A stretch of DNA of 64,000 nucleotides from Mobula hypostoma (lineage: Eukaryota): positions 53,136,001 through 53,200,000 of the forward strand of contig NC_086097.1 in assembly GCF_963921235.1 (NCBI RefSeq). Direction: 5' to 3'. This document shows positions 24,110-62,946 of this stretch, piece after piece (position 1 is the first letter of the stretch; every line of letters begins with the position of its first letter). Below the pieces are notes generated by a model. The model did not search any database, was not told the DNA's origin, and saw only the letters and a list, made by a program, of their open reading frames with translations. Made by a program: the position numbers and the translations under genes.

Positions 24110-24334
24110 CAAACAACAGGAATTCTGCAGATGCTGGAAATTCAAGCAACATACATCAAAGTTGCTGGTGAACGCAGCAGGCCAAGCAGCATCTGTAGGA
24201 AGAGGTGCAGTCGACGTTTCAGGCCGAGACCCTTCGTCAGGACTAACTGAAGGAAGAGTGAGTAAGGGATTTGAAAGTTGGAGGGGGAGGGGGAGATCCA
24301 AAATGATAGGAGAAGACAGGAGGGGGAGGGATAG
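24110..24334 (-). mobile_element. Penelope-like 3' terminus insertion (225 bp)
   Basis: Perfect 13-bp TSD agcttattacact (24097-24109, 24335-24347); contains a hammerhead motif. Confidence 0.88.
24208..24245 (-). ncRNA. Minimal type-I hammerhead ribozyme motif (core intact)
   Basis: UAGUC-CUGACGA-A-GGGUCUCGGCCU-GAAAC-GUC^GACUG. Confidence 0.75.
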
Positions 24335-24357
24335 AGCTTATTACACTGTATTATTGT

Positions 24358-24903
24358 AAGATGCTGGAAATCCGAGCAACAAACAGAAAATGCTGGAGGA
24401 ACTCCGCAAGGCCAGGCAGCATCTATGGAAAAAAGTACAGTTGACGTTTTGGGCCAAAACCTTCAGCAGGACTGGAGAGGAAAGGCAGAGGAGTAAATAT
24501 AAAAGATGATGGGGAGGGGGAGGGCAGAGAAACACCAGATGACAGGTGAAACCTGAAGGGGGAGGGATGAAGTAAAGAGCTGGGAAGTTGATTGGTGAAA
24601 GAGATAGAAGGCCATGGAAGAAAGAAAAAAAAAGGGGGGCGAGCACCAGAGGGAGGTGATGGGCAGGCAAGAGGATAAAGTGAGAGAAGGAAAAGGGGAT
24701 GGAAAATGGTGAAGGGGAGCAAATGGGGGGCATTACGGGAAGTTTGAGAAATCGATGCTTATGTCATCAGGTTGGAGGCTATCCAAATGGAATATAAGGT
24801 GTTGTTCCTCCATCCTAAGTGTGGCCTTATCATGACAGTGGCGGAGGCCATGGATGAACATATCGGAATAGGAATGGGAAGTGGAATTAAAATGGGTGGC
24901 TAC
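24358..24903 (-). mobile_element. Penelope-like 3' fragment (older subfamily)
   Basis: GIY-YIG C-terminal sequence plus terminus; hammerhead degenerate (CUGCUGA, AAAA). Confidence 0.8.
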
Positions 24904-26219
24904 TTTTTATAAATGCACACTATTTGATAACTTGGATTGCTAATATTTGGAATGCAACCCCAAAAGGATTAAAGGATGCTCTAGCTTTTGTGACTTAACA
25001 TAAGCTTGGAACTAAGTAAACCTCTGGGGTGCGAGATGTGGGTGACTGGATGAGGATGAGGATGAGGAGCAGAAGACCTGTTAGTTGGAGGCGGAGAAGG
25101 GCAAATTCCATTCTAGGAGAGCAAAATCCTGCCCGTGGTCACTTTCTTCAGACCATCAAGACTTAGTTGGCTTTTCTCTCCATTCCTAACCATCAAAAGG
25201 TCTCTGCAACATCTGTATATCTACCTACTCAAATTAGCATCCTGGTTCCTTCAATGACCTCTACAAAAATTTAGATCCTATCATCCTCACCCCGCGGACC
25301 ACATAATTTTTCTTTGTTCACGTGGGTTCTTTAGTCCTTCACATCAGGTTTGCAGATGTGGCGTAGACAAATGTCAGGAAGCCTAGCGTGTCATCACTGT
25401 TATGCTTCAGGTTCTGGGGTGAATCTTCCCTTCACTTCCCCGTTTGTCTCTCCCTCCCTCCCCATTTTGAGCGACTCCATCTATTGCCAATTACAATCAC
25501 TTCCATTGTAATTTCTTACCTGATTCACAGGTTTTCTGCATTCTAGGCTTGTCTTCGTACCTGCTATAAATATTCACAGTACTTTATTTATGAACAAGGC
25601 AAAATATAAAAAAAAGGACCACATTTCCATTATCAGCAACAAAGGAGAGGAAATATCACAAAAACTCAATAGAAATAACATTGCTCCAGAAAACAGATTA
25701 ACAGTTAGGATGGGGGCTTTTATTTAGAGGAGGAAGAGGACCTCTAAACTTTAATTGGTTTGTTTTCTCCATAAGTATTTAGACTGGCAAAGTTTCCAGT
25801 ATCTTTTAAAAAATTTATTTAATTGGATTCTCTTTCCATCAATAATCATCCATTGATATTTTCAGTAGTCTTCTGTTTTCCTTATCAGCTCCTCTATATT
25901 CAGATTTGTTCAGTATGAGTGTGAGGAAAGAAAGGCTTGCATTTGTATCCCAGGGTCGGAAATCTGAAGGAAATCCTTCAGCCAGCAAGCGTCCTGTCTT
26001 CTGTCACAAGTCCTCATTTCATTCCAAACCGCTTCGTCTTGCCACCTTAACATGGAACATGGAACATGGAAACATGAAGCTCAGAGCAGGCTTAAGGAAC
26101 ACATTTTCTGGGTGGGCACATTACTGACAAAGTTCAAAATTCAAAGTAAATTTACTTGCAAAGTACATGTACTGTATGCCATCATATAAAACACTGGTTT
26201 CTTCAGGTTGTTACAGCCA

Positions 26220-26832
26220 GGGTCCACTACCTATTAAATGCTCCCGATGGCGCGGGTTTCAGTCCGTCTCCCGGGCTTCACACGTGGCTTAGCTACAGTA
26301 CTGCACCATTTTTCATGACGGGAAGGGTCAAAGGCAGGTTACTGGTACCTTAAAACCAGTCGCATCGGGCGGATGGGGCTTGTCAGCTCATGGAGGAAGA
26401 GGAAAACTCTGATCTCAAACCTCCGATGCCTTGCGGCTATACCCACTCATGGGGAAGGCTTCGAGGTAAACCCCGAGGTAAAATCCGCAGCTGGAGTCCG
26501 GAAGACAGCCCTACGTTGAGGTCAACACTGAATGGCGCCTCCTGCGACGTCGCTGGTGCAAAACTGTATCGGTTTCACCGTTTCTTGGGATTCATCAGCT
26601 GCGTGGGGAGGGGCAGCATGCTACCTGGGCAATAGCCCGCTCTGCATATCGCACTTCCCCGACTTGCATATCAAGTAACACACATCGAAGTTGCTGGTGA
26701 ACGCAGCATCTCTAGGAAGAGGTACAGTCGACGTTTCGGGCCGAGACCCTTCGTCAGGACTTGCATATCAGGTAGACGGCTGGGATGCAACATCTACGTT
26801 CAACCCTGACCAATGGAGGACCTCAACAACCC
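26220..26832 (+). mobile_element. CpG-rich non-coding SINE-like element (possibly RTE-related) hosting a Penelope mini-insertion
   Basis: Abrupt composition change within a REX tail; ends in caacaac; split at 26677/26758. Confidence 0.55.
26725..26761 (-). ncRNA. Minimal type-I hammerhead ribozyme motif (core intact)
   Basis: AGUC-CUGACGA-A-GGGUCUCGGCCC-GAAAC-GUC^GACU; predicted cleavage between 26730 and 26729. Confidence 0.8.
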
Positions 26833-27487: not shown

Positions 27488-30400
27488 ATAGAGAAAATAC
27501 TAGAACTATACAGCAGATCAGGCAGTGTATGAGGAAGAGAAACAGTGCTTTATACTGGACATCTTTCAAAAACATCGTGCACAAGAGACGTTAATTCTTT
27601 CTCACTCCACGGATCTGCTGAGAATTTCTTGCCTTTTCTGTTTTCATTCAAATTTTCACCTCCGTTTTAAGACTCCCTTAATATTGCACGGGAATAATAG
27701 CCTAGACTGTTTTTTTCTGCTTGGATCTTTGGGATTTAAACCTATAACTTTCTGACAAGAATGTTTTAAATAAGTCACGAAACACATCAACTATCTGTTC
27801 TCACCACTGAATGAGGTTTGGTTACTTGAGAGGGATTCCAAAGTTTACCTTAATCCACTTAAGGCACTACTTAGGTTGAAATCTATAATTTACTCAAAAA
27901 ATGCTTTTCGTTGTCATGCAACATGTTGAATGAAGCTCAGAGCAGAAGGGATATTTTTGTATGCAATGTCGAGAACTGCAGAAATAGATTAACTACGTTG
28001 TGCAGCGTGAAGCATTTAGTTGGGCTGCAATTCAGCAAAGTAACCCTCAATGATCCCCACCCACCAGTCACCATGGAATCTACTAGGAGAGAAAAAAATA
28101 AACAAAACATTCTGGCCAAGCTAAGGAAAACACTGAAAAATTCTCTTATTATTAAACTAAAAATTGAACAAATATATTCCATTGGCAATTTGTCGACGTG
28201 TCATGTTGACTTTTACCAGCAACGTCTTTAACATTAGGAAATCCTGAATAAAGGAGCCTATTTAATGTTTAATTGAGATGAATTTGCTCTTCTTTTAAGT
28301 ACCACAATGGTGTTTCTCATTTGGCGTCCAGAAAGATTCCCGGAGTCCCAAGGCGCCTGCCTTGTGATCTCAGGTTCGAGTCATGTGTCAGATAATCTTC
28401 GTAGATGTGATCTGTGTATTCAAAGCCCAAATCGACTGAAATAGCTTCCAATAATGTTTTACAAATTGGAGGAATATTCAAAATTCTAAAGAAACACCCA
28501 TAATCCATTAACAACAGAGAAATCAGCCCTATTACCTGATCAGAAAAGTGCTAGACGTGAGCCCTCTCCCATCCGTACCCAAACCATTTCCAACTTTGGA
28601 CAATCAACATTTAGGTCATTTGTAACTTTCAGTAATTATCAAGAAAATTATTGATCAGCTTGTTTACTTTTATGTGTGCACGAAATAAACATGACGAAAA
28701 CTTAACCGATTGACGATCATCATCTGGTGACGGTGAACCGTACAGCGAAATGCGGCTAATGGAGGAGACGCTGTTAGACTTTGAGACGTTATGAGCTGAT
28801 GTATTCAGCTTTTGGCTCAACACGAATGAACAAAACATGCAAGTAAATACGTACTCAAGTGGATCCTTGTGTATATGTAGAGTCTATTTTATTTTGCTGA
28901 CTCCCAACCAGCAGTTTTGGGAAGGTACAGCATGGATCTGTTTCCCTGCTCCTTATGATTCACGCAGAGGGTCCTGTTACAGCACTGAGTTCCAAGTGAG
29001 AAAAAAGGAACTTTTTTTTTAGTTGTTTACAGTTGAACCTATAAAATGCTAGTTATATCTGTTATGACACATGCTCCAGCTATTTCTATCTATGAACCAG
29101 ACTTTTCATTGACCTACAGCACAAGGTCATTCAAAAATCGATCCGTTTTGATAATTAGATTTAATAGAGGTATTGAAAAGTTGTTGCACCTTATGGTTTA
29201 AGAATGAGTAAAGTGTCACAATATACATTCTGCTGAAGACAGACAGTGAAGTGGATTGTAGGGGAGGGCACTGCAGTACAGTACTGTACGTCCTGAGGGC
29301 ATGGCTTTGCCTCAGTGAGTGCTGCTTCCTCACGGTCCCGGTGATCCTGACTGCATTCTCCCGGAGACCATGGGGGGGGGGGGTCTTCTCTAGGTGCCCC
29401 ACTTTCTTTCCACATCTCAAAGTTGGGCTGCCACTGTAAACTACTCTTCAGTGTAGGTTAGGTGGCAAAAAGAATCAAAGGGAAATTAATCGGCACAAGT
29501 AAGAAAGAATAAGTTCCAGGGTACAGAGCAAGAAGAGGAGAAAATTGTATCAATCCCTGTGAGCCAGCATGTACAAAGCCCATAAATTAAAATTACATTT
29601 AATCATGTGCAAATGTGAATAGGATGTATATCTCAATTGCTATGTAATAAAATTTAGGTCCCTCCAGAATGTAAAGAAAGTGTCAAAAACCAAAACAGAA
29701 ATTGTTGGCATTACTCTAACATAATTTTATTTTAAAGCCATTACTAAGCCACTGTTCCTTATAATCTCAAAACTGCAATTTCAAAACAGCAGTGATTCAT
29801 TTTACAGAAGATTTGGAGTGGATGCAACCAGATAAATTACAGGTTTGAATGCAAGAAGCTGGGACTTTTTTTTGTTTTTAGTAGGGCATACAAGAAGTAT
29901 TGTACAGTACAAAAGAGATGACTTGATAGAGGTGTACAGGATGATAAGATCCTACCCAATCGCATGAATGGCAGCGATGCTTCACTACCAGATGAACTCA
30001 ACACCTTCTATGCACGCCTTGAAAGGGAGAACACAACTACAGCTGTGAAGATCCCTGCTGCACCTGATAACCCTGTGATCTCTGTCTCAGAAGCAAATGT
30101 TAGACTGGCTTTAAAGAGAGTGAACCCTTGCAAGGTGGAAGGTCCTGATGGAGTACCTGGTAAGGCTCTGAAAACCTGTGCCAACCAACCAGCGGGAGTA
30201 TTCAAGGACATTTTCAACCTCACTGCTGTGGGCGGAAGTTCCCACTTGCTTCAAAAAGGCAACAATTATACCAGTGCCTAAGAAGAATAACGTGAGCTGC
30301 CTTAATGACTATTGCCCGGTAGTGCTCACATCGACAGTGATGAAATGCTTTGAGAGGTTGGTCATGACTAGCCTGAACTCCTGTCTCAGCAAGAACCTGG

Positions 30401-30964
30401 ACCCACTGCAATTTGCCTATCGCCACAAAAAGTCAATGGCAAATGCAATGCCAGTGGCTCTTCACACGGTTTTAGACCACCTGGACAACATAAACACCTA
30501 CGTCAAGATACTGTTCATCGACTATAGCTCAGCATTTAATATAATCATTCCCACAATCCTGATTGAGAAGTTGCAGAACCTGGGCCTCTGTACCTCCCTC
30601 TGCAACTGGATCCTCGACTTCCCAACTGGAAGACCACAATCTGTGTGGATTGGTGATAACATCTGCTCCTCACTGACGATCAACACTGGTGCACCTCGGG
30701 GGTGTTTGCTTAGCCCACTGCTCTACTCTCTATATACACATGACTGTGTGGCTAGGCATAGCTCAAATACCATCTATAAATTTGCTGACGATACAACCGT
30801 TGTTGGTAGAATCTCATACAGAGACGCGAGGGCGTATAGGAGTGAGAAATGCCAACCTGTGGAGGGGTGTTGCAGCAACAACCTGGCACTAGAAGTCAGT
30901 AAGATGAAAGAGCTGATTGTGGACTTCAGGAAGGGTAAGACAAAAGAACACATACCAATCCTCA

Positions 30965-33092
30965 AACACGAGGAAATCTGCAGATGCTGGAATTTCAAGC
31001 AAAACACATAAAAGTTGCTGGTGAACGCAGCAGGCCAGGTAGCATCTCTAGGAAGAGGTACAGTTGACGTTTTGGGCCGAGGCCCTTCGTCAGGACTAAC
31101 TGAAGGAAGAGCTAGTAAGAGATTTGAAAGTGGGAGGGGGAGGGGGAGATCCAAAATGATAGGAGAAGACAGGAGGGGGATGGAAGGAGCCCAGAGCTGG
31201 ACAGGTGATTGGCAAAAGGGGTATGAGAGGATCATAGGACGGGAGGCCTAGGGAGAAAGAAAGGGGGAGGGGGGGAAGCCCAGAGGATGGGCAAGGAGTA
31301 TAGTGAGAGGGACAGAGGGAGAAAAAGGAGAGAGAGAAAAAGAATATAATAAGTAAATAAATAAGGGATGGGGTACAAGGGGAAGGTGGGGCATTAATGG
31401 AAGTTAGAGGAAGTCAATGTTCATGCCATCAGGTTGGAGGCTACCCAGACGGAATATAAGATGTTGTTCCTCCAACCTGAGTGTGGCTTCATCTTGGCAG
31501 TAGAGGAGGCCGTGGATAGACATATCAGAATGGGAATGGGACGTGGAATTAGAGGGTTAACATATGAGGAACGTTTGTCTGCTCTTGGACTGTATTCCTT
31601 GGAGTTTAGAAGAATGAGGGGAGACCTCATAGAAATATTTCGAATGTTAAAAGGCATGGACAGAGTGGATGTGGCAAAGTTGTTTTCCATGATGGGGGAG
31701 TCCAGTACGAGAGGGCATGACTTAAGGATTGAAGGGCGCCCATTCAGAACAGAAATGCGAAGAAATTTTTTTAGTCAGAGGGTGGTGAATCTATGGAATT
31801 TGTTGCCATGGGCAGCAGTGGAGGCCAAGTCATTGGGTGTATTGAAGGCAGAGATTGATAGGTGTCTGAGTAGCCAGGGCATCAAAGGTTATGGTGAGAA
31901 GGCGGAGGAGTGGGACTAAATGGGAGAATGGATCAGCTCATGATAAAATGGCGGAGCAGACTCGATGGGCCAAATGGCTGACTTCTGTTCCTTTGTCTTA
32001 TGGTCTTATGTCTTATGAAATTAAAATGTGTGGCCACTGGGAGATCCTGCTTTCTCTGGCGGACAGAACATAGTTGTTCAGTGAAACGGTCTCCTAGTCT
32101 GCGTTGGGTCGCACCAATATATATAAGGCCGCATCAGGAGCACCAGATGCAGTGTATCACCCCAGCTGACTCACAGGTGAAGTGTCGCCTCACCTGGAAG
32201 GACTGTCTGGGGCCCTGAATGGTGGTAAGGGAGGAAGTGTAAGGGCATGTGTGGCACTTGTTCCGCTTACAAGGATAAGTGCTGGGAGGGAGATCAGTGG
32301 GGAGGGATGGGGGGGGGAATGAATGGACAAGGGAGTCACGAAGGGAGCAATCCCTGCGGGGGGGGGGAGAGGGAAAGATGTGCTTAGTGGCGGGATCCAG
32401 TTGGAGGTGGCAGAAGTTACGGAGAATTATATGTTGGACCCGGAGGCTGGTGGGGTGGTAGGTGAGGACAAGGGGAACCCTATTCCTAGTGGGGTGGCGG
32501 GAGGATGGGGTGAGAGCAGATGTGCATGAAATGGGAGAGATGCATTTGAGAGCAGAGTTGATGGTGGAGGATGGGAAGCCCCTTTCTTTAAAAAAGGAGG
32601 ACATCTCCTTCGTCCTGGAATGAAAAGCCTCATCCTGAGAGCAGATGCGGCGGAGACAGAGGAATTGCAAGAAGGGGATGGCATTTTTGCAAGACACAGG
32701 ATGAGAAGAGGAATAGCCAAGGTAGCTGTGAGAGTCCGTGGGCTTATAGTAGACATTTGTAAATAAGCTGTCTCCAGAGGTAGAGACAGAAAGATCTAGA
32801 AAGGGGAGGGAGGTGTTGGAAATGGACCAGGTAAACTTGAGGGCAGGGTGAAAGTTGGAGGCAAAGTTAGTGAAGTCAACGAGCTCAGCACGCGTGCAGG
32901 AAACAGTGCCAATGCAGTCGTTGATGTAGCGAAGGAAAAGTGGGGGACAGATACCAGAATAAGTTTGGAACATGGATTGTTCCACAAAGCCAACAAAAAG
33001 GCAGGCATAGCTGGGACCCATATGGGTGCCCATAGCTACACCTTCAGTTTGGAGGAAGTGGAGGAGCCAAAGGAGAAATTATTAAGAGTAAG
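30965..33092 (-). mobile_element. Penelope-like element (RT + GIY-YIG), 5'-truncated, interrupted by a CR1
   Basis: MGTHMGPSYACLF...FLRYINDC...LPFLDL...YYKPTDSHSYL; FTCESAGVIHCIWC; 8-bp TSD aatcctca (30957-30964, 33093-33100). The hammerhead at 31061-31098 has GAAA>AAAA. Confidence 0.92.
31552..32015 (+). mobile_element. Young CR1-like LINE 3' fragment
   Basis: GLTYEERLSALGLYSLEFRRMRGDLIE; (TCTTATGG) tail; flanks tggaatta/tgaaatta. Confidence 0.9.
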
Positions 33093-36845: not shown

Positions 36846-36947
36846 GCCCCATCACCATGCAGTGCAACCATTTGCCAGCCAGTGTTGGTTCTGGTTCTAA
36901 AAGCGCTCTGAGAAATCACAGAGCTGTTCCAGGCACAAAGAGTGTAA

Positions 36948-38653
36948 CACACATCAAAGTTGCTGGTGAACGCAGCAGGCCAGGCAGCATCTCTAGGAAG
37001 AGGTACAGTCGACGTTTCAAACCGAGACCCTTCGTCAGGACTAACTGAAGGAAGAGTTAGTAAGAGATTTGGAAGTTGGAGGGGGAGGGGGAGATCCAAA
37101 ATGATAGGGGAAGACAGGAGGGGGAGGGATGGAGCCAAGAGCTGGACAGGTGATTGGCAAAAGGGGATATGAGAGGATCATGGGACAGGAGGCCCAGGGA
37201 GAAAGACAATGGGGGTGGGGGAACCCAGAGGATGGGCAAGGGGTATAGTAAGAGGGAGAAAAAGGAGAGTGAGAGAAAGAATGTGTGTATAAAAATAAGT
37301 AATAGATGGGGTACGAGGGGGAGGTGGGGCATTAGCGGAAGTTAGAGAAGTCGATGTTCATGCCATCAGGTTGGAGGCTACCCAGACGGAATATAAGGTG
37401 TTGTTTCTCCAACCTGAGTGTGGTTTCATCTTTACAGTAGAGGAGGCCATGGATAGACATGTCAGAATGGGAATGGGATGTGGAATTAAAATGTGTGGTT
37501 ACTGGGAGATCCTGCTTTCTCTGGCGGACAGAGCATAGGTGTTCAGCAAAGCGGTCTCCCAGTCTGCGTCGGGTCTTGCCAATATATAGGCCACATCGGG
37601 AGCACCGGACGCAGTATATCACCCCAGCCGACTCACAGGTGAAGTGTTGCCTCACCTGGAAGGACTGTTTGGGGCCCTGAATGGTGGTAAGGGAGGAAGT
37701 GTAAGGGCATGTGTAGCACTTGTTCCGCATACAAGGATAAGTGCCAGGAGGTAGATCAGTGCGGAGGGATGGGGGGGACGAATCGACAAGGGAGTCGCGC
37801 AGGGAACGATCCCTGCGGAAAGCAGTGAGAGTGGGGGAGGGAAAGATGTGCTTAGTGGTGGGATCCCGTTGGAGGGGCGGAAGTTAAGGAGAATAATATG
37901 TTGGACCCGGAGGCTGGTGGGGTGGTAGGCGAGGACCAGGGGAACCCTATTCCTAGTGGCGTGGCGGGAGGATGGAGTGAGAGCAGATGTACGTGAAATG
38001 GGGGAGATGCGTTTGAGAGCAGAGTTGATAGTGGAGGAAGGGAAGCCCCTTTCTTTAAAAAAGGAAGACATCTCCCACGTCCTGGAATGAAAAGCCTCAT
38101 CCTGAGAGCAGATGTGGCGGAGACGGAGGAATTGCGAGAAGGGGATGGCATTTTTGCAAGAGACAGGGTGAGAAGAGGAATAGTCCAGATAGCTGTGAGA
38201 GTCAGTAGGCTTATAGTAGACATCAGTGGATAAGCTGCCTCCAGAGACAGAGACAGAAAGATCTAGAAAGGGGAGGGAGGTGTCAGAAATGGACCAGGTA
38301 AACTTGAGGGCAGGGTGAAAGTTGGAGGCAAAGTTAATAAAGTCAACAAGCTCAGCATGCGTGCAGGAAGCAGCGCCAATGCAGTCATCAATATAGCGAA
38401 GGAAAAGTGGGGGACAGATACCAGAATAGGCACGGAACATAGATTGTTCCACAAAGCCAACAAAAAGGCAGGAATAGCTAGGACCCATACGGATGCCCAT
38501 AGCTACACCTTTAGTTTGGAGGAAGTGGGAGGAGCCAAAGGAGAAATTATTAAGAGTAAGGACTAATTCCGCTTTAAAGAGATGATCTAAACTTCTTCGG
38601 TGTAGGCATTACCGGAAGAGGCTTCGCAGTAGTGAATTTTAAAAACTGAAGAG
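36948..38653 (-). mobile_element. Penelope-like element (RT + GIY-YIG endonuclease), frameshifted
   Basis: ORFs 37652-38500 (FLRYIDDC) and 37332-37730 (VIYCVRCSRCGLYIGKTRRRLGDRFAEH); 11-bp TSD aaagagtgtaa (36937-36947, 38654-38664). Confidence 0.93.
37006..37043 (-). ncRNA. Minimal hammerhead ribozyme motif (core intact, weak stem II)
   Basis: UAGUC-CUGACGA-A-GGGUCUCGGUUU-GAAAC-GUC^GACUG. Confidence 0.65.
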
Positions 38654-41600
38654 AAAGAGTGTAAGATTATTTCAATTACAATGCCAGGATTTTCTCACTT
38701 CCAGATTTCACTTATTAGAGACAGACATACAGAAAATTGGCAGGCCTAGAGAGATAAAGATAAAGATGACAGTGATGTGCAGTGAGGGTGAGCAACTTCC
38801 TGAAACAGGGGAAGTGGGAGATATTTGGCCTCTGAGCAGGATGGGAGGGAGGTCTGAACAGATCAGTTAATAAAAAAAGGCACTGAAGCTTTTTATGTGG
38901 TCTGCATTACTCATTTACCCGGGGCCTCAACCTGCCACTGGAGTGTCTGCCTGAGGACTTTGGAAAGATTATGAGAAGGTTTGATGGCATAGCTATAGGG
39001 AATAGGTTTCTCTTGCTATACAGACTGGAATTAGGGCCACGAATCCACAATAATCATTAATGGATCAAAAAAAGGAAGTAAAGGAGCTTTTCTTTTTAAA
39101 TCTAGAGTGATGAGATGCTGGCGCTCAATGCCACAAGGAGAAGATGATCAGTCCTGTGTGATGCATCAAAGGGAGGCTAGATGAGGAGAAACTGAGTTGA
39201 AGACGATGTCCTGGGGGTAATGAATAGTATGGTTGAGCTCTCTGTATGCTTTGAAACATAAACATCTGTTGGTCAATGTGTTGCATCTATGCTCCAAGTT
39301 CAACATAATGCTGTTTACTTTGACTGATGGATAAGCTGATGCACATCTCTAAATATACACTGATTAGAAACTCATTCAAACAAAGTTCATTTATACAGTG
39401 ATATTTGCATTAAATAAGGTAAAGCCAGTTTAAATACAAATATAATTTTTAAAATTAAAAATACCATAGCAGCTCACAAAGCTGTACATTGTTGGGATAG
39501 TTCTCACATGTTTTATACGGTCTTCCTGCCTTACTCTTCAATGGACTGTACATATCATTACGATCAGAATGAATCCATATTGTATGTGTATCCCGAGTTG
39601 GATTCCTGGTGAGCGCTATGGCAATCAGAACATTACCAACACTACTGCTTTAGTCAGTTTTCAGTGTGAGCAATTTTTTTCCCTCTTATTTTCCATAGAA
39701 GATGAAGAAAAATAATGTTGCGCTTCAGAACTGAAACTAAAGCTGCTGTTTTAAGTAAAACAAAACACAACGAATTGTTAATTAACCCAAGAGCTTCTGC
39801 AGAAGATGCAAGTCCAGAGTAACACACACAAAATGCTGGAGGACACAGCAGGTCAGGCTGAATCTATGAAGAGAAATAACCAGTCGACGTTTTGGGCTGA
39901 GACCCATATACCCATCTACAGAAAGTTCATAAAGTATTTAGAATATTAACAGTAACAACATAGTAAACACTAGAATCAATTTTGCAATTAAACTCCAGGT
40001 GTTCTTGGGATGCAATAATCATGAGATTAAATTCACCTTGTGAAATGGTACCTTGTGGTGAGCTTGATGCACCTCTGTTTGACTGCTTGGAAATGTAGCA
40101 CAAACCCATTGACTCCAGCAATTGATTTTTAATGCTAACAAGGAATTCAAAGTTAGTGGTTATTTTCTATTGTAATGTCCAAGTGCACTGAAGCTCAAAA
40201 GTAATTGTGATGTTCTGATACACTGATAACCTGTGTCCTGCGCCTGATTAGAACTTCATGTGATGCAGTTATTCAAGCTTAATTCATATTTTTTTCTTTT
40301 TGGAAGTCTCACACCAGAATTACAATATAAACCATAAAAATAACAGCTCGGAAATTGTGTACAACAGTTCTTGCTGAATTAGCATGGAAATTCAGCATTG
40401 TTATGGTTCCCAAGGTGAACAATAGTCAAATATTTTATTGATAATTTACCAAATGCACAATTCTAACTTGATATTGTTACAAACATTCAAAGCACATTTA
40501 TTACCAAAGAATGTATAAATTATATACCTTGAAATTTGCCTGCTTACAGGTGGTCACAAAGCAAGAAACCTGAATAACCCATTAAAAAAAACGCTAAAAA
40601 CCACTGTGCAGAGAAAGAGAAAAAATAGAACATACATATCATGCAAACAACAGAAGCAAGCCAACAGCATCCCGAACCAAACTAAGTCTCAGGTCCTTTC
40701 CTGGAACAGTTGGGGTAGGCCCAAGCCTCAGTCCCCAGTTCATCACATCAGCAGGGCGAAAACGTAGAGCAGCTGGATCAGTTCATAGCCTTGGTGCCAT
40801 GGAAAAAGGAATGAACATTTGCAGGACAGCGAGCAAAATCAGCCCAACTCTCAACTCCATTCCCAACACGGGCTCCCAGACAATCTGTGCTGGCATTTAA
40901 ATTGTCTAAGCACCGGATAGTGCCTCATTCTAGGACCCGGACTTCAGTGCCACGATACGCTTAGGGCTGCCCCAATTTTCATTGTACATTTTCATATCCA
41001 TTGTGATAATTTTAAGAGCAGTTTTGCACTGCATGGGTCAGCTGCTCAAATAAATTTTAAGTTACAGAGAGAACAATTTTGATCTCATCAGTCTGAGATC
41101 AATTTAAACAGAAGAACCCAGATGCCACAGATGACATTTGAAACAGTTACACCACCCAATCTTTCTGAAATTATCTAGAAAAAATGACTCAACCCCAATC
41201 GAAGAAATTTTGAACAGACTTCCTGCATACTACATAACATTTTTGATTTGTATGTTTCTATAATGTTGCTATAGATACATGAACAACCTATCACATGAAT
41301 ACCAAATTTGGGACCTATTTTGTAATGTGGAATTTCATCCTATGGGTAGTGGAGGAAGGTTGCCAAACCTCAATTGTAATTTATACCAGCTGTTGAAGAG
41401 TGAAATGATTTAACTCTGCCTAAGCAGCATGTATTCTGTGTTCTGGAGTAACAGAATGAACTAAATACAAAGTCAAAAGTTACGATCAAAATCATTTTCA
41501 AATTAATTTACAAAATGCAGTAAAATCTTTTCTGAAATAATCAACGTAACATTATGCAGAATAATATATTAATGGCCATAAATGAAATTATTACCATGTA

Positions 41601-42063: not shown

Positions 42064-45000
42064 CTTCCAGTGTTAGATCACCAACTCCACTAAATACTTT
42101 GAAATTTTCAAAACCTACCATCTCAGTTTATAAAATTCTAGCAATTCTAACTTTACTTTCGGTATTTTCACCTCACAATTTTAACTCCTTGATGTCAGAA
42201 TCAACACTGCACCCTCCACAAAGGGAAACCACCCTTTTTATGGTGTGTGTAGATCTGATCACTCTATGCAAAGAGAGATCAAACCTGGGGTTTTCATGCA
42301 GCTGTAACAACAATTCCAGTCTACTCACGTTCCCTTCCCTCAGAAGTACAGTATAAACCTGTATTCCATTACTCATTTGATTTTTACACCAATGACAATT
42401 TAATGGTCTATGGAATAAAAACAGAAAATTCTGGCAGTACTCAACAGGTCAGGCATCATCTGTGGGAAGGGCAGAGTTAACATTTCAAGTGAAGGACTGT
42501 TTCAGGCCCACATATATGGATCCAAAATTCTATGCATTGGTCATGCTTCCATCTTCTCACCATTTAGGAAGTACAAAGCTGTCCTTTCTGCCTGGTTTCT
42601 CTAGGGGACAAAGGTTTCGGAAAGTCATCCTGTAGGTAACAGGGTGAAAGCTGAAAGATGGGTTACTTAATCTTGTGTCACAGTGTTGTTGAATCTGCAT
42701 TCTATTTTCAGAACCGGAGTTCTATTTTTCTCCCAATGTGCCCCCCCCATGGCACACTGACTTCCCAAATGGTTCTGCACACACAATCGAGGTGGTCAAT
42801 CATTTACTTCAGACAACCTAGCCTCACAAACCTGTTCGTTTAGTCCGACTATCTCTCATGCTATTGATACCCTTGTAATATTGATGGTGTGGAAATTGGT
42901 GATGGTAATGCAGAAGTGCCAGGTCCCCTCTTTCCAAAGCTGGTCATTAACCAGCACAAGTCCAAGTGGTCAGGGTGCATACAGTTATGAATTTCTTTGT
43001 CATACAATAAATTGTGAAAGGAACTGAGTATTTCATTGTTCCCCTTCTGACATGAAGGACGTTAATCATATGTGGTTGATCAATGTCTAGTGGCTCAGTG
43101 AGTAGGTGCACTGGGTTCTTTCTTGTAAAAATGGCGTATACTTTATATCCTTCTTGTGAATGCTGCTAACCCGATGCCTGTGATGCTGCTGAAAGTAAGT
43201 TTTTCATTCCACCTGTGCATACATGCACTTGAGTATATGACAATAAAGATTTTGCATATTATTGTACAGATTACCATTTGTCTGGCGGATGCCAATGTTG
43301 AGAATAGATGAACTGAAGTCTTCTTGATTCTTCAGTGCCATAGCCTGGCACCAGTATAGTTTATGCATTTCTTGATGCTATTTGCTTTAGATCAAATTGG
43401 CTTGTGTTACCGGGAAGCGCAGAGATGAACTATCCACTCAGGGCAAAATGCACACTTCAGTCTTAACGTTTGCACACAGGTATTGAGCTCCGTCATTGTG
43501 AGGGGTGGGATGGTCAAAGAGCTGCCCATTGTTATTGATCAGTTGTTCTGTACATGATTCTTCACAGCCTAAGTACCTAGTTTTAGTAGTTTGTAATCTC
43601 TTAAGTCTGAAGTGATAAAAACTCAAATATGCAATTACACCAAAATGTGTAGCATTTTGTTAGTGGTGTCAATATGATTGATCCTTGGGGAGCATGAGAA
43701 TGCAGAGCAACACACTGTAAATGTTACATTGATTTCCTGTTGTTGAGTTCTGCCCAAGTTACTTTAACTTGTGAAAATTATAAAACAGATATAAACTGGT
43801 TGGTGCTGGTGGCCATTGAGGCTTGCAAATGGGTCTGGTACAACATGTGGTTAGGAACCACTCCAGAAAGGACCAGTCTACAAACAGTCTAACAGTAAAA
43901 TTTTGACTTGAATTTTGCTCAAATAATCCTCAACTGAATAATCAATATTTGATCAATAAAGAGATTTTACTCTTTTTCCAAGCTGGAATTACTGGAATTA
44001 GGATCCTGATGCACAAAGGAGAAATGTGGTTTTCTCCTTGCCTTACACATGTTCAATACAAACACCAAGGAACAGTTTTGAACAGTACCTTTGTTAAATG
44101 GTTTCCCATTCTCAATTTTATAGAATTTTGTATTATAGTCTCCTTGATCCTAATTCTTTGCAATTTAGCATAGTTTCATACTCCCTGGGCTTCATAATAC
44201 ACCAACAGAAGGTAACTGGCAGATTACCATTTTGTTATTAGTCCAAACACTGACAATGAATGCATTTATCTGTCTGGGAATTCTGTAGAATCAGAGTTCC
44301 TCCAGCATTTTGTGTGTGGTGCTTTGGATTTCCAGCATCTTCAGATTTTCTCATGTTTGAAATGGCGTTCTGAACTCAAGTTCATCCACTGACACGAAGC
44401 CACAGACCCTCAGTTCAACATAGAGCCAAGTCAACTTCACGGAGCAGCGAGCTGAACCAGCCCGTCCCTCGCCTCAGGCTCTGACACCCTGTCCTGTCCT
44501 TTCTCATCTGGCCCGGTGCTAAAATCATCGTCCAAACATTGCGTTCTGTTGCTTGGATACTCTCTGGGGCTTGGATTCCGCCACCTCAATTCAGGCTATC
44601 TCCAACCTTTGCAGTTCAGTCCGGTGCTTAAATTGTTGTCCAAACATCAGATTCTGCTACTTTGATACGCTCTGGGGCCTGGACTTTGCCACTTCAATTT
44701 GGCTTGTATCCCACTTTTCCAATTCAGCCCGGTATTTAAATCAATTGGGTCTTTCCTGCTGCTTTGCCTTGGTTCTATTGCATTGTATCGCCTCCAAGTC
44801 CAAACCCCAAAGGGAAGTTACAGGCTACTGTTGGTGGTGATCGTTTAACAGAAAAAGTGTGACTAACAAGGTATTTAGTTGTTTTCTCTGTTTCACTGGC
44901 CCCAGCTATTAGATGCTGAGGTTCACCAGCACCATCTTAAACCAGAAACCAAATAACAAGTTTTTATTATAGACAGTAGTCAGAAAACTCACAGCTAGAC

Positions 45001-49530: not shown

Positions 49531-49646
49531 TCCTACTTATCCCTGCAAGCGGCCTAAGTGAGACACCTGTCCTTGTCACATCCTCCCTCACCTCCATTCC
49601 GGGTCCCAAACAGTCCTTCCAGGTGAGGCAACACTTCACCTGTGAA

Positions 49647-51204
49647 CACGAGAAAATCCGCAGACGCGGGAAATTCAAGCAACACACACAAAATGCTGGT
49701 GAATGCAGCAGGCCAGGCAGCATCTATAGGAAGAAGTACAGTCGACATTTCGGGTCAAGACCCTTCGTCAGGACTAACGGAAAAAAGAGATAGTAAGAGA
49801 TTTGAAAGTGGGACGGGGGGGAGACCCAAAATGATGGGAGAAGACAGGAGGGGAAGAGATGAAACCAAGAGCTGGGAAGCTGATTGGCAAATGGGATGGA
49901 AGGTCTTGGAAGAAAGAAAGGGGGAGGAGAGCACCAGAGGAAGATGGAGAACAGGCAAAGAGTTATTGTGAAAGGGAAAGAGAGGGAAAAAAATTAGGGA
50001 TGGGGTAAGAAGGGGAGGAGGGGCATTAACAGAAGTTAGAGAAATCATTGTTCATGCCATCAGGTTGGAGGCTACCCAGACGGAATATAAGGTGTTATTC
50101 CTCCAACCTGAGTGTAGCTTCATCTCGACAGTAAAGGAGACCCGAAATGATATACGGATTGACATATCGGAATGGGAATGGGACGTGGAATTAAAATGTG
50201 TGGCCACTGGGAGATCCTGCTTTCTCTGGCGGACAGAGCGTAGGTGTTCAGCGAAATGGTCTCCCAATCTGCGTCGGGTCTCGCCAATATATAGAAGGCC
50301 ACACCGGGAGCACCGGACGCAGGGGGACGAATGGACAAGGGAGTCACGTAGGAAGCGATCCCTGCGGAAAGCAGAAAGTGGAGGGAGGGAAAGATGTGCT
50401 TGGCAGTGGGATCCCGTTGGAGATGGCGGACGTTACGGAGAATTATAGTTGGACACAGAGGCTGGTGGGGTGGTAGGTGAGGACAAGAGGAACCCTATCC
50501 CTAGTGGGGTGGCGGGAGGATGGGGTGAGAGCAGATGTGTGTGAAATGGGAGAGATGTGTTTGAGGGCAGAGTTGATGATGGAGGAAGGGAAGCCCCTTT
50601 CTTTTAAAAACGAAAGACATCTCCTTCGTCCTGGAATGAAAAGCCTCATTCAGAGAGCGATACGGTGGAGACGGCGGAATTGAGAGAAGGGGATGGCATT
50701 TTTACAAGTAACAGGATGGGAAGAGGCATAGTCCAAGTAGCTGTGAGAGTCTCTGGGCTTATAGTAGACATCAGTAGATAAGCTGTCTCCAGAGATACAG
50801 ACAGAGATCAATGAAGGGGAGGGAGGTGTCGGAAATGGACCAGGTAAATTTGAGGGCAGGGTGGAAGCTGGAGGCAAAGTTGATGAACTCAATCCTTGCC
50901 TGTTCTCCATCTTCCTCTGGTGCTCCCCTCCGCCTTTCTTTCTTTCAAGGCCTTCCGTCCCATGATACTCCCCCTTCTCCAGCCTTGTATCCCTTTTGCC
51001 AATCAACTTCCCAGCTCTTGGTTTCATCCCTCCCCCTCCTGTCTTCTCCTATCATTTCAGGTCTCCCCCTCCCCCTTTCAAAACTCTTACTATCTCTTTT
51101 TTCTATTAGTCCTGACGAAGGGTCTCCACTCAAAATGTCGACTGTATTTCTTCCTATAGATGCTGCCTGGCCTGCTGCGTTCCACCAGCATTTTGTGTGT
51201 GTTG
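49647..51204 (-). mobile_element. Penelope-like element with an inverted copy of its 3' terminus at the 5' end
   Basis: 13-bp TSD cttcacctgtgaa (49634-49646, 51205-51217); arms ~49678-49960 and ~50895-51206 are reverse complements. Confidence 0.9.
49739..49776 (-). ncRNA. Minimal hammerhead ribozyme motif, sense to FERMT2 pre-mRNA
   Basis: UAGUC-CUGACGA-A-GGGUCUUGACCC-GAAAU-GUC^GACUG. Confidence 0.65.
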
Positions 51205-51725
51205 CTTCACCTGTGAATCTGCTGGGGTCACCTTTGTGCCTGATGCTTCCTATGCAGCATTAGTGAGATCTATTATAAATTGGGGGAATACTTCAAGCAC
51301 CTCAGCTCCATCCGCCTAAAGTGGAACCTCCCAATGGCCTAACATTTTAACTCGAATTCTCATTCTGACATGTTGGTCCATGGTCTCCTCTTGTGCCGCG
51401 ATGAGGCCACCTTCAGGATGGAGGAACAACACCTTAAATTCCATCTGGTAGCCTCCAACCTGATTCTTCCTCTGGTGAAAGCATTTCCCTCCCCCTCCCC
51501 ACTTCTTCTATTCCCCACTATGGCCTCTTACTTCTTCTCATCTGCTTATCACCTCCCCCTGGGTCCCCTTCTCCTTTCCTTTTTCCTATGGTCCACTCTC
51601 CTCTCCTATCGGTTTCCTTTCTCTCCAGTCTTTTACCTTTCCAACCCAGTTGGTTTCACCTATCACCTTCTTGCTATCCTCCTTCCCTCATTTATTCTGG
51701 CATCTTCCCCTTCCTGTCCTGTCCT

Positions 51726-51761
51726 GTCCTGATGAAGGGTCTCGGCCTGAAATGTCGACTG
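51726..51761 (+). ncRNA. Minimal hammerhead ribozyme motif (core intact)
   Basis: GUC-CUGAUGA-A-GGGUCUCGGCCU-GAAAU-GUC^GAC. Confidence 0.6.
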
Positions 51762-52949: not shown

Positions 52950-53329
52950 GACCATAAGACAAAGGAGCAGAAGTAGGCCATTCAGCCTATCTAGTCTGCT
53001 CCGCCATTTTATCATGAGCTGATCCATTCTCCCATTTAGTCCCACTCCCCCGCCTTCTCACCATAACCTTTGATGCCCTGGCTACTCAGATACCTATCAA
53101 TCTCTGCCTTAAATACACCCAATGACTTGGCCTCCACTGCTGCCCGTGGCAACAAATTCCATAGATTCACCACCCTCTGACTAAAAAAATTTCTTTGCAT
53201 TTCTGTTCTGAATGGGCGCCCTTCAATCCTTAAGTCATGCCCTCTCGTACTAGACTCCCCCATCATGGGAAACAACCTTGCCACATCCACTCTGTCCATG
53301 CCTTTTAACATTCGAAATGTTTCTATGAA
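52950..53329 (-). mobile_element. Young CR1-like 3' fragment
   Basis: Near-identical to the 3' part of 31552-32015; TSD cttataa (52943-52949, 53330-53336). Confidence 0.9.
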
Positions 53330-58789: not shown

Positions 58790-60490
58790 AAGCATACAGC
58801 CATGGTATCTTCAAACATGGAAACGCCCTCTGGTCCAACCTGTCCATGCCAATTGTGTCACCCAGTGATTTATTCCCATCTGCCCGCGTCTGGCACGTAA
58901 TCCTCTAAACCACTTCCATCAGTGTGCGTATCTAGATGGCCTTTAGATATGGTTAATGTGTCCACTGCTAACTTAATTTCTGGCAGTACATATGCACCAC
59001 AATTTGTGAGAAGAAGCTGCCCCATTAGTCCCCTTTAAATCTCTCGCCTCTGATCTTAAACCTATGCCTCTTGTTTTTTGTACCTCCTCTCTGGGAGGAA
59101 AGGCTATGTGCTTCCACCCTGTCTACATCCGTCACGATCTACAATTCCTCTGTCAGGTCACCCCCTCAATCTCCCACCATCCAGGGAATTAAGTCCTAGT
59201 CTACACAACTTCATCTTGTACCTCAGGCCCTCAAGTTAAGGCAACATCCTGATAAATCATATCTGCACTTTCACTACTTTAATAACATCTTTCCTTTAAC
59301 AGGGTGATCAAATCTGTACATAATACTCCAAGTGAGGCTTCACCAATGTCTGGTATAGCTGCATCATAACTTGTTAACTTTTAAACTCAGCGCCTTGACT
59401 GATGAATCCAATATGCCTAATGCCTTCTTCACCATTTGATATCTACTTCAGATGCCACTTTCAGCAAACTATGCAAGTGCACTCAAGGTCCCTCTGTTCC
59501 ATTACATTCCCCAGTGTACCGTTCACTGTACAAGTCCCTACCTGGGTTAGACCTCCCAAGATACCCTACAAATGGATTGAAAGCCATTCGCCAATCATCA
59601 GCCCATTTACCAAGCTGATTATAATCAGTAATTTTACATAACCTTCTACACTGTCTGCAATACTACCTAATTGACTATCGTCTACAAACTCATTAATTTT
59701 GCCTGGACATTCACATCTAAATCATGAATCTAAATTCACGAACAAGGGTCTCAGCACTGACCTTCGAGGTGCACCACCAGACACAGGCCTCTAGAGTGAG
59801 GAACAACCCTCAAACAACACCCAGCTACCCCCCTCCCCCACCCTGCTTTCTACCACAGAGCTAATTACTAATCCAAATAATGATCTCCCCCTAGATTCCA
59901 TGCAATCTGACCTTCAAGACTAGACTCTCATGAGGGAACTTGTCAATGGTGTTCCTAAAAGTCCATATAGACAACATCCATTGTCCTACTATTATATACT
60001 CTCTTGGTTATGAATTCCAAGAGATTTGTCAGACACAAGTTCCCATGCAAAACTGTGCTGACTATCCTGAATAAGACCCTGTCTCTCCAAATATCCCATC
60101 CAGCCCTAGTTCCATCACATCCTCTTTCTTAACATCGACATGTTCTAGCATATCAGCATGTTCTACGCTAATTTCACATTCGTCAATTTCCCACTCACTG
60201 ATGAATACTGAGGCAATGTATTCATCAAGGGCCTCCCCCATCTCCTCCAACTCCAGGCACACGCTTCCTCTTTTATATCTGATTGGTCCTACTCTCACTG
60301 TTCTCATCCTCCTGTTCTTCATGTACTGTATGTGTTTTTTGCCTTGGGGCTTTTCTTATTCTTACTTGCAAGGCCTTCTCACCCCCCCTCCCCCACCCCA
60401 CTAGCTCCGCTAAGTCAATTCTTCAGCTCCTTCCTGGTTACCATATAACACTCCAGAATTCAGTCTGATCCTTGCTTCTTCAACCTTAAG
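58790..60490 (-). mobile_element. Old degenerate CR1-like LINE
   Basis: RVGPIRYKRGSVCLELEEMGEALDEYIASVF and other degenerate CR1 motifs. Confidence 0.7.
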
Positions 60491-62814
60491 CATGCTTCAT
60501 TCTTCATCTTGACCACCTATAATATCCCCATCCCTGGAGCCAATCCAAGTCCTTAGTTCATCTGCCTCTTGCGTCGAAATAAATAGGTTTAAATCAATGG
60601 TTTTTGCTCTCCCTTTATGTGCCTCTGCCGATAGTGACAACTAAACTTGCTCTCATTTGCTACCATTTAACCCCCTGATTCCTAATCATCTACTCAGCTT
60701 AAATAGCAAGTAAAACAGACCTTACCGTAAAACAGTCAGTAAAATTGCATAAAATTCCACGGAAGCCTTAAGAAGCAATGCTATGATTTGACTCTAGCAC
60801 AAGGACAGCATTTAATTGGCTCCGTTTCTTGTCAGCAATAAGTGTTCCAGTAATTCTCTAAATGGGCCTTCTAACCTTTCTTAACAAATCAGTTCACACT
60901 GTCATAAAGAATATCACTAAACAACAACTTGTCCCAAGAGATAGAGAGTTGAGGAAGAAATCATCAGGAAAGACTGGTTATTAGAAATTGCTTTGCATGC
61001 TAGCCAAATGGCTGTTATTTAAAGGCCCATTGCTAATACCTTCAGGGTCTCCATGTTTATATTGACTATCTGCTTGGAGACTTCTGGACCTGTTTAGAGG
61101 CATAACATACTGTACATCTTCACAAGACTAATTCATAATTCCAGAGTGCTTTCAAGGCCCCTAAAGGGCCACAAAATCCTGACCTGGAACAAGCCTAACC
61201 ACACAGTTGAAGCCTTTTTCAGAGGGGGGTTCAACCTCACCCACCCTGCTGCCAGGGTGTCCAAAATGTCCAGTCCTAGCCTTGCAGCGATCACCAGAGT
61301 GACTGACTGAATCGCGACCTGGGCTAGCTGTCTGTCTGCACAATGCAACCAGGTTCCATTACCAGTCACACGCTTCTAGCTTTTAGCTCCACCTATCCCC
61401 ATTAAACTACTCTACCCACTCCTAAACTTTACTCATTCTCTTTTGAATTACCCACCCAGCTGCTGCAATACATAATCTTCCCAACTTATTGAGTGAGCTT
61501 GCAGAGGAAAAGACTCTGCCAACACAAATCTATGTAAAGTCTGCCCTATGGTAGACAATGCAATGCCAGCTATGTCACCACCACACCACCACTGCATTTG
61601 TGTAGCTCTGTAAACATAGGAACATAATTAGACTAGTTTCTTGAAATTGTTCTGCCAACCAATGAGATCTTTCCCCCTCAAATTTCATGCAGTTTAATGT
61701 GCACACATATCAAAAATCGTAGATTTTAAATGAATGTGTCATCTGTAGAAGAGGTCTAAACTTCTACCACACTTTGTACAATGAAGTTCTTTCTAACATT
61801 AACTCATGGAAGGTCTAGCTTTAAGAGTTAGACAACAGGTGTTTATATGACATAAGTGATTACAGTTGCAGACTATCTCGCCTTGGACTTAAGCATTTCA
61901 GTACAAGGTCTGAAGGGATATCACATATACTGCTCTGCAGGTGTAGTGACTCAAGCTATTGAATAACAAAGCTAGTTTTAAATTGCATCACAGTAGGTTT
62001 AGTGTTAAACGGATGTTCCCTTTCCTACTTTTTTCTAAGCAGAAAGACTTAGCCAACAGGAAACATTGTTATATGGACAGTAGAAACAGCCTTCAAAAAT
62101 GAATCATTCTTCCCAGTTCAAAAATGCCAGCACAGTGAAACACTTCTTCAGAGCCAAACCAGAAAATCCCTCCATGCAACTTGGAACACTTCACTAGTTG
62201 GGTTTTACAGGTAAACCAATCTAAGCGGAATTTCGAAATGAGCAACAGCATATTGAAGCGAAATAACTTTACCATTAAGTGGGGAAAAATCAATTTAAAA
62301 ATCTCAATGAATAAGAATTCTATGCTAATGTGTATAATGACAAGAGACTGCTCTCACCAGCCCCTTCAGTCTTTGCATCTCTCAATTACTGACAGCATGA
62401 AACTAACTGTGCAGTCTAGCAATGCTGTATTCAGCCTTTAAAAAGGTAATTATGTAATGCTCGACATTGTTTGTACCACTTTGAAAAATTACATTCTGAA
62501 CTACCCAGTTTATAATGTCTCCAAACTTAGATGCAATCTGCATACTTGAATATATTATGAAAGATGGTGGCCCCACAAGAAATCAATGTGGGGCAGTACC
62601 GGCCACACCCTGCTGGAGTTCCCAGTATCCACATTCATTATAATCTACATCACGACCAATCACTAACAAATTATACATCTACTTCAATCAAGCTTATCTG
62701 ATAATCTAATGAACAGTTTCAATAATCAATTCCATTGGCAGGAATCATGAAATGCAGAAGGATTAAGCAAAACAGAATCCAATATTGTTCAATTTATAAA
62801 GATTTTTTTTAAAA

Positions 62815-62946
62815 AACGAGAGAAATTCTGCAGGTGCTGGAAATCTGAGCAACACACACAAAATGCTGGAGGAACTCAGCAGGCTAGGCAGCATCAAGGA
62901 AAAGAGTACAGCTGATGTTTCGGGTCAAAACCCTTCAGCAGGACAA
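62815..62946 (-). mobile_element. Short Penelope-like 3' terminus with degenerate hammerhead
   Basis: GUC-CUGCUGA-AGGGUUUUGACCC-GAAAC-AUC. Confidence 0.75.

Follow-up and report, generated by a model that had tools for sequence, protein, structure and literature searches.

Minimal type I hammerhead ribozymes (min-HHRs) of metazoan Penelope-like elements (PLEs) have been known since 2014 (Cervera and De la Pena 2014, PMC4209133), with ~4,000 copies counted for the coelacanth and ~9,000 for Xenopus. The motif described here shares with them the type I core, a single added nucleotide separating position 9 from 10.1, the G10.1-C11.1 pair, a palindromic helix III (15.2-16.2) without a loop, a short helix I, the location in the pseudo-LTR (pLTR), and the occurrence mostly as solo copies of truncated PLEs in thousands per genome. 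In Poseidon of the green anole (PAc; Frangieh et al. 2024, PMC11167929), reverse transcription has two start points, leaves a 30-40-bp tail optional and works on RNA uncut at the hammerhead; the elements here likewise have two 3' ends, an optional tail, copying from apparently uncut RNA and AT-rich targets. The endonuclease-bearing (EN+) Neptune and Nematis PLEs (Craig et al. 2021, PMC8557442), in which the role of the hammerhead is still called unclear, resemble the elements here in a reverse transcriptase (RT) followed by a C-terminal GIY-YIG domain, cysteines between GIY and YIG, a CX2-5CxxC linker, an inverted 5'-truncated partner and a tail at one end only. Our search of PMC4209133 and two of its supplements found no cartilaginous fish, and in the paper we met no mention of an A6C subfamily. 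Our literature search found no report on Penelope in a Mobula genome or on Penelope hammerheads like these in sharks.

The window, the whole 64-kb stretch of DNA analysed here, contains 11 copies of the 36-nt motif, at all 11 sites listed in the initial annotation (Table 1, which also gives the copy numbers used below). On its sequence, the motif belongs to the already described min-HHR class of the PLE tail, and the core letters CUGANGA, GAAA and UH are all kept in type I order in five of the 11 copies. A 28-nt pattern built from the copies gave eight matches at ≤3 mismatches and none in 100 dinucleotide shuffles. A profile made from 12 copies of the window recovered all 11 motif-bearing copies (E ≤ 3.6e-22), four tail-only or older relics (E ≤ 3.6e-8) and two weak matches; the reversed window gave no match. 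The Rfam covariance models gave 0 matches over the window at E ≤ 1 and place the motif under no Rfam family.

Table 1. Motif copies, elements, coding remnants and relics in the window.
Feature	Position	Strand	Details
Old damaged copy	4160..4195	-	GAAA>CAAA; element ~4083-4550, 8-bp flanking repeat
Relic	17059-17114	+	profile search
Relic	19590-19630	-	profile search
pLTR body 3' of cut site	24112..24212	-	~101 nt; optional PLE tail in the last ~35 nt
Copy 24240, subfamily A	24209..24244	-	core letters intact; G10.1-U11.1
Element of copy 24240	24112-24337		tailed; 13-bp target-site duplication (TSD); inserted just 3' of older copy 24469
Copy 24469, C6 core	24439..24473	-	CUGCUGA; 1-nt deletion in GGG; GAAA>AAAA
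Element of copy 24469	24359-24904		includes GIY-YIG C-terminus
Copy 26757, intact min-hammerhead	26726..26761	-	helix I AGUC/GACU, CUGACGA, extra A, 4-bp helix II with CUCG loop, GAAA, ACGU, C17
Predicted cut of copy 26757	26730/26729	-	
Insert of copy 26757	26675-26757		83 bp; tail-less; 13-bp TSD
Copy 31093, subfamily A	31062..31097	-	GAAA>AAAA
Element of copy 31093	30963-33092		RT and EN remnants; 8-bp TSD; other repeat inside at 31552-32009
Copy 37038, subfamily A	37007..37042	-	core letters intact; helix II of four wobble pairs
Element of copy 37038	36946-38653		tail-less; 11-bp TSD
Broken PLE ORF	37332..38608	-	RT part 37652-38608: GVAMGIRMGPSY, RYIDD
Second-frame part of broken PLE ORF	37332-37883	-	CX4CXXC linker; GIY-YIG with two cysteines inside
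5'-truncated copy	39882..39905	-	starts at helix II within motif; GAAA>AAAA
Relic	42419-42494	-	profile search
Tail-only relic without motif	44292..44357	+	profile search
Inverted composite, single insertion	49645..51207		one 13-bp TSD round both arms
Composite arm 1, copy 49771	49740-49775	-	tailed; motif position given
Composite arm 2, copy 51112	51108-51143	+	tail-less; motif position given
Copy 51729, older A6 copy	51725..51760	+	CUGAUGA, AUGU
Element of copy 51729	~49535-51860		target into which the inverted composite inserted
Copy 62941, second C6 core	62910..62945	-	
Insert of copy 62941	~62812-62944		tailed; starts on helix I 5' arm; ~15-bp flanking duplication, one mismatch (by eye)

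Comparison of the copies showed that 10 of the 11 are damaged. The initial annotation had listed five intact cores; the core letters are kept in all five, but only copy 26757 is whole throughout. Besides the defects of copies 24240 and 37038 (Table 1), the palindrome is lost in copies 49771 and 51729 (AUGU), and copy 51729 combines this with G10.1-U11.1 and a break in the outer helix I pair. The annotated extra A after A9 is present in 10 of 10 copies spanning that position, and the annotated helix III palindrome ACGU in 6/11, the others reading AUGU or ACAU by CpG transition; helix III has no loop. Both are defining features of the published class (PMC4209133). The pair 10.1-11.1 is G-C in the majority, with U at 11.1 in 4/11 copies through CpG transition. 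Helix II is 4 bp with a tetraloop, and the annotated 5-bp stem would leave a 2-nt loop; Schistosoma motifs have 7-8 bp (PMC4209133). Among 10 window copies, none of the four helix II pairs has changed on both sides. Therefore the window shows no covariation there, contrary to the claim that this stem varies while keeping its pairing. The 4-bp helix I shows no covariation inside the window family either. Conserved structure in the 3' tail is unsupported (z of -1.14 to +0.48 in four copies; one 5-bp hairpin in RNAalifold, without two-sided change).

Covariation was instead found among relatives. Pairing of helix I across 46 metagenome groups, which constitute the unbiased test (a hand-picked set of 19 rows, partly chosen for pairing, was set aside), amounts to 116 of 184 Watson-Crick pairs vs. 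67 ± 6 after shuffling. Matches of the same architecture have A6 in 112 of 123 cases with position 6 left free in the search; position 7 varies. A PLE protein match accompanies 36 of the 123, in 32 of these upstream and in sense. A prokaryote control gave nine matches, seven of them not animal-like, with A6 in one and 6/28 pairs. The metagenome scan, covering 14/64 parts, contained no copy of the window's own family.

The motif lies 254-300 nt after the stop codon of a GIY-YIG ORF on the sense strand (stop to C3, 4/4 copies tested), which, with the agreement of the metagenome relatives, upholds the original assignment to a type I minimal hammerhead in Penelope-like termini. PLE ORF remnants run continuously with five of the 11 motif copies (24469, 31093, 37038, 49771 and 51729; tblastn). 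The endonuclease pattern reads CX4CXXC and GVIYC..C..C.LYIG, and two copies have the CX2-5CxxC linker (CMRNKCYTC, CKRNKCHTC), which together with cysteines in GIY-YIG is the pattern of Neptune and Nematis (PMC8557442). Among 14 aligned proteins, seven match the Pfam GIY-YIG family PF01541, but the window piece itself does not; no Pfam family matched the RT and EN pieces of the window and no PDB chain its RT piece. The nearest named homologues are from the rays Hypanus, Leucoraja and Mobula. The translated motif region, used as a protein query, returned only two Mobula gene models, both of A6 type. Thus, the host appears to be a Neptune-like EN+ Penelope retrotransposon, the choice between Neptune and Nematis resting on the linker motif. 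Unlike the reference elements of PMC8557442, the window contains no full-length ORF and no tandem pLTR-ORF-pLTR, and all copies are 5'-truncated. PAc represents another clade, the CX2-5CxxC linker belonging to the element here, and its ORF starts inside the hammerhead (PMC11167929), whereas no start codon was found in the motif here.

The window copies are separate insertions, several with TSDs. Counted downstream from C17, the 3' ends of six copies fall at 65, 65, 55, 98, 101 and 103 nt, the third of them shortened by a 12-nt deletion. This gives two discrete ends ~35 nt apart; the 5' ends are ragged. The optional tail is absent from copies 26757, 37038 and 51112. Contigs of public runs have loose ends at 24110, near the end of the pLTR body. 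Two inserts start on the 5' arm of helix I rather than at the cut, and in copy 26757 this arm is the last 4 nt of the TSD. Ends 65 or ~100 nt beyond the cut site suggest that the copies were made from uncut RNA, which PAc RT also uses (PMC11167929), and are passengers. The arms of the inverted composite differ by 2% outside CpG, and PAc priming on both strands fits such a structure. CpG transitions account for 25 of 46 differences, in agreement with the decay originally proposed: cells at CpG sites are off the majority letter in 27/108 cases vs. 19/276 elsewhere, and GAAA>AAAA occurs in 4/11 copies. Conservation of the motif above its UTR holds between subfamilies (0.78 vs. 0.62, 15 pairs) but not within subfamily A (0.86 vs. 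0.85, 10 pairs), a contrast indicating selection on the source elements rather than on the copies.

The very high copy number noted at the outset is confirmed by the 11 copies in 64 kb and by 142,783 contigs of one public run on an 871-nt stretch, although summed contig depth does not measure copy number and was not taken for it. With one copy every 5.8 kb, the genome would contain many more than coelacanth or Xenopus. Viral contigs gave 0 matches, and raw-read runs X21 and X22 of other organisms 2 and 0 matching reads. Sequence of the family is also present in a public run guessed to be RNA; as this run is stored as contigs, it does not display RNA ends, and its listing gave no accumulation of ends.

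Taken together, we assign a probability of roughly 0.85 to the motif being a minimal type I hammerhead in the 3' pLTR of a highly amplified Neptune-like Penelope, with the window copies as 5'-truncated, CpG-decaying and likely inert passengers. Reverse transcription likely takes uncut RNA and begins downstream of the cut site, by 65 or ~100 nt, which is why the motif would be carried along without acting; the 10 of 11 mutated copies are likely inert. In full-length tandem source elements outside the window, two motif copies could pair through ACGU into a double hammerhead, which, probably with help from the element protein, would slowly cut the long precursor RNA at GUC. Only in source elements would selection for this cutting keep the core, the helices and five CpGs. 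The double hammerhead of copy 26757 has -16.9 kcal/mol vs. -26.0 kcal/mol for two inactive monomers, therefore dimer cleavage needs help; dimer energies for copies with mismatched helices were set aside. That the dispersed copies themselves are working ribozymes cutting host transcripts as cis dimers, a strong form of the initial reading, is very improbable. Their number, the five complete sets of core letters and the run guessed to be RNA speak for it. However, the single intact copy folds best, as a monomer, into a hairpin hiding the core, and the closest copies on its strand are 2.3 and 4.3 kb off. The only same-strand pairs <1 kb apart, 24240/24469 and 51112/51729, each contain a broken core, subfamily A lacks excess conservation, and single min-HHRs were inactive in PMC4209133. 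Least probable of all is that small circles spread a non-autonomous family, either a non-LTR retrozyme or SINE-like. Several copies are indeed short and non-coding (83-230 bp), and retrozymes derive from PLE pLTRs and were found in one chondrichthyan (bioRxiv 10.64898/2026.07.22.740005). But no tandem array covers the motif in the window, the C6 copy 24469 and copy 24240 are separate insertions, the 3' ends are fixed with ragged 5' ends, and PLE ORF remnants are continuous with five of the 11 motif copies. Without consecutive units each bearing a complete hammerhead, a retrozyme identity is largely refuted in the window.

A more serious alternative, tentative but well above the preceding two, accepts the same identity for the motif and departs on function: cleavage would be dispensable for copying, the motif would matter chiefly to the RT particle, as a fold or boundary, and a C6 subfamily would have amplified with a nearly silent ribozyme. 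Copies 24469 and 62941, previously counted as damaged, look rather like an inherited subfamily. Both have A6C, are mutual nearest neighbours (0.12) and have six non-majority letters in common; among 191 comparable cells A>C is found just three times, two of them in these copies. The loose-end consensus at 24461 also reads a C6 core, in 500 contigs of public run X1 and 31 of X15, but as a plurality letter (agreement 0.49 over 30 letters) in two runs with one organism label. In a type II hammerhead at 0.3 mM Mg2+, the rate fell with A6C from 0.3 to 3.55e-6 per min (PMC7151607). As this change nearly abolishes Mg2+ cleavage in other hammerheads, the C6 subfamily may have multiplied with no cutting. 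In anole Poseidon, core mutants were unimpaired for insertion in vitro (PMC11167929), and the two starts on the helix I arm fit as well. However, C6 RNAs could be copied in trans or form dimers with an A6 partner. Elsewhere C6 is seldom seen (3/123), and a protein-database query with a C6 copy gave no match in the named rays. A ray Penelope subfamily with a CUGCCGA core, retaining helices I and II and the palindrome, nearly silent in Mg2+ and yet of very large copy number, is conceivable but stays on the doubtful side. Phage Bcep176 has the same substitution at core position 6 (PMC3088659, PMC7151607), in a single hammerhead with full helices, whereas here it occurs in a multi-copy retroelement subfamily with a minimal helix III. 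No Penelope hammerhead with A6C was found in our literature search; Luense, Weinberg and Breaker (RNA Biol 14:1499) may list C6 or chondrichthyan variants.

The class itself adds little to what was described in 2014. The genome, in turn, provides very many dated insertions together with sister subfamilies that have A6 and C6 cores. If the C6 reading is true, it would be a natural in vivo experiment in which hammerhead cleavage is unneeded for PLE amplification, and the motif would be retained for its fold or to mark an RT boundary, or be rescued by protein or Mn2+. Comparison of the A6 and C6 subfamilies would be a test of the need for cleavage in retrotransposition in vivo.

All eleven motif sites named in the initial annotation are present in the window. 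A pattern derived from the copies gave 8 matches at ≤3 mismatches and 0 in 100 shuffles of the window. With a profile of 12 window copies, 11 motif copies, four relics without an intact motif and two weak matches were recovered, and the reversed window gave 0 matches. Comparison with hammerhead models, as proposed initially, gave 0 matches in an Rfam scan of the window at E ≤ 1. The motif shows minimal hammerhead (min-HHR) features listed in PMC4209133, namely a nucleotide between 9 and 10.1, G10.1-C11.1 and a palindromic 15.2-16.2, and thus belongs to this already described class. Helix II consists of 4 bp and a tetraloop. A retrozyme array, as defined in bioRxiv 10.64898/2026.07.22.740005, was rejected, as no tandem array covers the motif.

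Some 7.5 kb of the window (11.7%) belongs to the family, with one motif per 5.8 kb. In X1, a public sequencing run kept as contigs, an 871-nt stretch is matched by 142,783 contigs and the depth peak falls on the motif bin. Assuming a typical window and a gigabase-sized genome, a copy number of something like 10^5 or more is suggested, a rough figure rather than a count. Part of the element was found under five organism labels. Relics of the tail that are older and more diverged suggest that related elements had spread in earlier waves.

The stop codon of an upstream ORF lies 254-300 nt before the motif in all four copies tested. This ORF holds RT motifs, a CX4CXXC linker and a GIY-YIG domain with internal cysteines, the Neptune/Nematis pattern (PMC8557442). 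ORF pieces from the window gave 0 Pfam family matches, and GIY-YIG was matched by 7 of the 14 aligned proteins; named homologues were identified in Hypanus and Leucoraja. The translated motif region is present in two Mobula gene models (97% and 80% identity), and a batoid host is therefore likely. Mobula and Hypanus gene models P0028, P0029, P0024 and P0026 (STARD3NL, ATP synthase C3 and SRP14 isoforms) hold translated element pieces, reflecting either exonisation or an annotation artefact.

CUGANGA, GAAA and UH are all kept in 5/11 copies. These five had been called intact, which holds for their core letters, but the helices are also intact only in copy 26757. Copy 24240 has G10.1-U11.1, helix II of 37038 consists of four wobble pairs (hammerhead-like fold, +1.4 kcal/mol), and AUGU replaces the palindrome in 49771 and 51729. 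The proposed pairing-preserving variation of helix II was not borne out by a covariation check, with two-sided changes in 0/4 pairs among 10 copies. Decay through CpG transitions did find support, accounting for 25 of 46 differences; CpG cells differ in 27/108 cases, compared with 19/276 for other cells. The motif carries five CpGs in 36 nt, and the CpG o/e of the window is 0.35. Excluding three copies without UTR, identities of UTR, motif and tail are 0.85, 0.86 and 0.86 within subfamily A (10 pairs), and 0.62, 0.78 and 0.67 between subfamilies (15 pairs). The motif-to-UTR comparison thus shows conservation of the motif among source lineages and its drift in the copies.

The best fold of the intact monomer is a hairpin pairing the core GACG with the cut-site CGUC (-13.0 vs. 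-9.0 kcal/mol), and a double hammerhead reaches -16.9 kcal/mol against -26.0 kcal/mol for two such hairpins. This unfavourable dimer energy agrees with the weak dimer activity of min-HHRs (PMC4209133) and the protein dependence in anole Poseidon (PMC11167929). Only two same-strand pairs lie <1 kb apart, each with one broken core. Given the core-hiding fold, the costly double hammerhead and the broken cores in close pairs, the window copies are likely inert, and any cleavage would belong to full-length tandem source elements.

Flanking repeats were searched automatically at 11 inserts; apart from the six such repeats in the table, the other five inserts gave 5-8-bp flanking matches of doubtful meaning. 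The segment 49645-51207 is one inverted insertion (the composite), whose minus arm has the tail and whose plus arm lacks it, with one TSD enclosing both. Its arms differ by 2% outside CpG, and its target is an older member of this family. This nested PLE in PLE (49535-51860) clearly illustrates priming on both strands at the two RT starts. In six measured copies, the distance from the cut-site nucleotide C17 to the 3' end is 65, 65, 55 (with a 12-nt deletion), 98, 101 and 103 nt, and 424 X1 contigs depart from the element at 24110 and continue in unrelated sequence rich in AT. The two 3' ends and the optional tail (the last ~35 nt) correspond to what is described for anole Poseidon, which has two RT starts and an optional tail, takes unprocessed RNA as its main template and needs protein for cutting by its hammerhead (PMC11167929). 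A copy spanning both sides of the cut site would derive from RNA uncut there, or religated. Short inserts 26757(-) and 62944(-) start on the helix I 5' arm rather than at the cut site. The target duplication supplies the AGTC arm of 26757, so that the sole intact ribozyme was completed by target DNA. Joints at 24243-24244 are also listed among the contig alignments.

Flanking repeats and other sequence features of the window
Feature	Copy or position	Strand	Length or unit	Remark
Flanking repeat	26757		13 bp	automatic search
Flanking repeat	24240		13 bp	automatic search
Flanking repeat	31093		8 bp	automatic search
Flanking repeat	37038		11 bp	automatic search
Flanking repeat	composite		13 bp	automatic search
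Flanking repeat	4191		8 bp	automatic search
Duplication	62941		~15-bp	by eye
Tail relic	42419-42494	-
Tail relic	17059-17114	+
Tail relic	27490-27546	-
Tail relic	54252-54344	+
LINE 3' fragment	31552-32009	+		within 31093 element
LINE, RT ORF	30172-31011 and 33165-33602	+		interrupted by 31093 element
Tandem array	21464-22158		33-bp unit
Tandem array	23291-23857		30-bp unit	unit again at 353-439
Tandem array	36253-36802		31-bp unit
Tandem array	9046-9248		35-bp unit
Imperfect palindrome	6460-6779		320 bp	74.6% self-complementary

The LINE fragment, putatively CR1-like by protein motif, matches 52946-53328 along 383 nt with 95.8% identity. The interrupted LINE has an RVT_1 match before the 31093 element and an ALKBH8_N match after it.

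A pattern with positions 6, 7 and helix I unconstrained matched 120 loci in 14/64 parts of a metagenome collection. A6 occurs in 112 of 123 flanked matches, and position 7 is variable (51 A, 44 T, 14 C, 14 G). Among the first members of 46 greedy groups, 116/184 helix I pairs are Watson-Crick, compared with 67 ± 6 after shuffling (0/20,000 shuffles, a figure that is no probability because the groups are related). All four helix I pairs change on both sides in an alignment of 19 hand-picked rows. A PLE protein match accompanies 36/123 matches, 32 of them upstream in sense. In prokaryote genomes the same pattern gave 9 matches, two of which resemble animal families; the other seven show A6 once and 6/28 helix I pairs. 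Two contigs of one GTDB MAG (L122 and L124) carry animal-type PLE hammerheads, probably through host contamination. Seven loci (L023, L026, L076, L078, L084, L112 and L113) have two motifs on opposite strands, an inverted PLE arrangement.

Two copies, 24469 and 62941, have the core CUGCUGA; each is the other's nearest neighbour, and they share six non-majority letters. A>C changes occur in just 3/191 cells, these two included. Contigs that depart from 24469 at the 1-nt deletion private to this copy (500 in X1; 31 in X15, a run guessed to be RNA and likewise kept as contigs; both runs under one organism label) give a consensus that reads, by plurality letter, as the C6 core with its CpG intact. 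At least one further C6 variant is among the contig variants listed, and protein searches for C6 in named organisms added no case. A6C is described in phage Bcep176 with low activity (PMC3088659), and in a type II hammerhead it lowers the rate from 0.3 to 3.55e-6 per min at 0.3 mM Mg2+, sparing activity in Mn2+ (PMC7151607). A literature search for A6C in Penelope hammerheads found no paper, Luense et al. on PLE variants lying outside its coverage. The C6 subfamily is the single point worth following.
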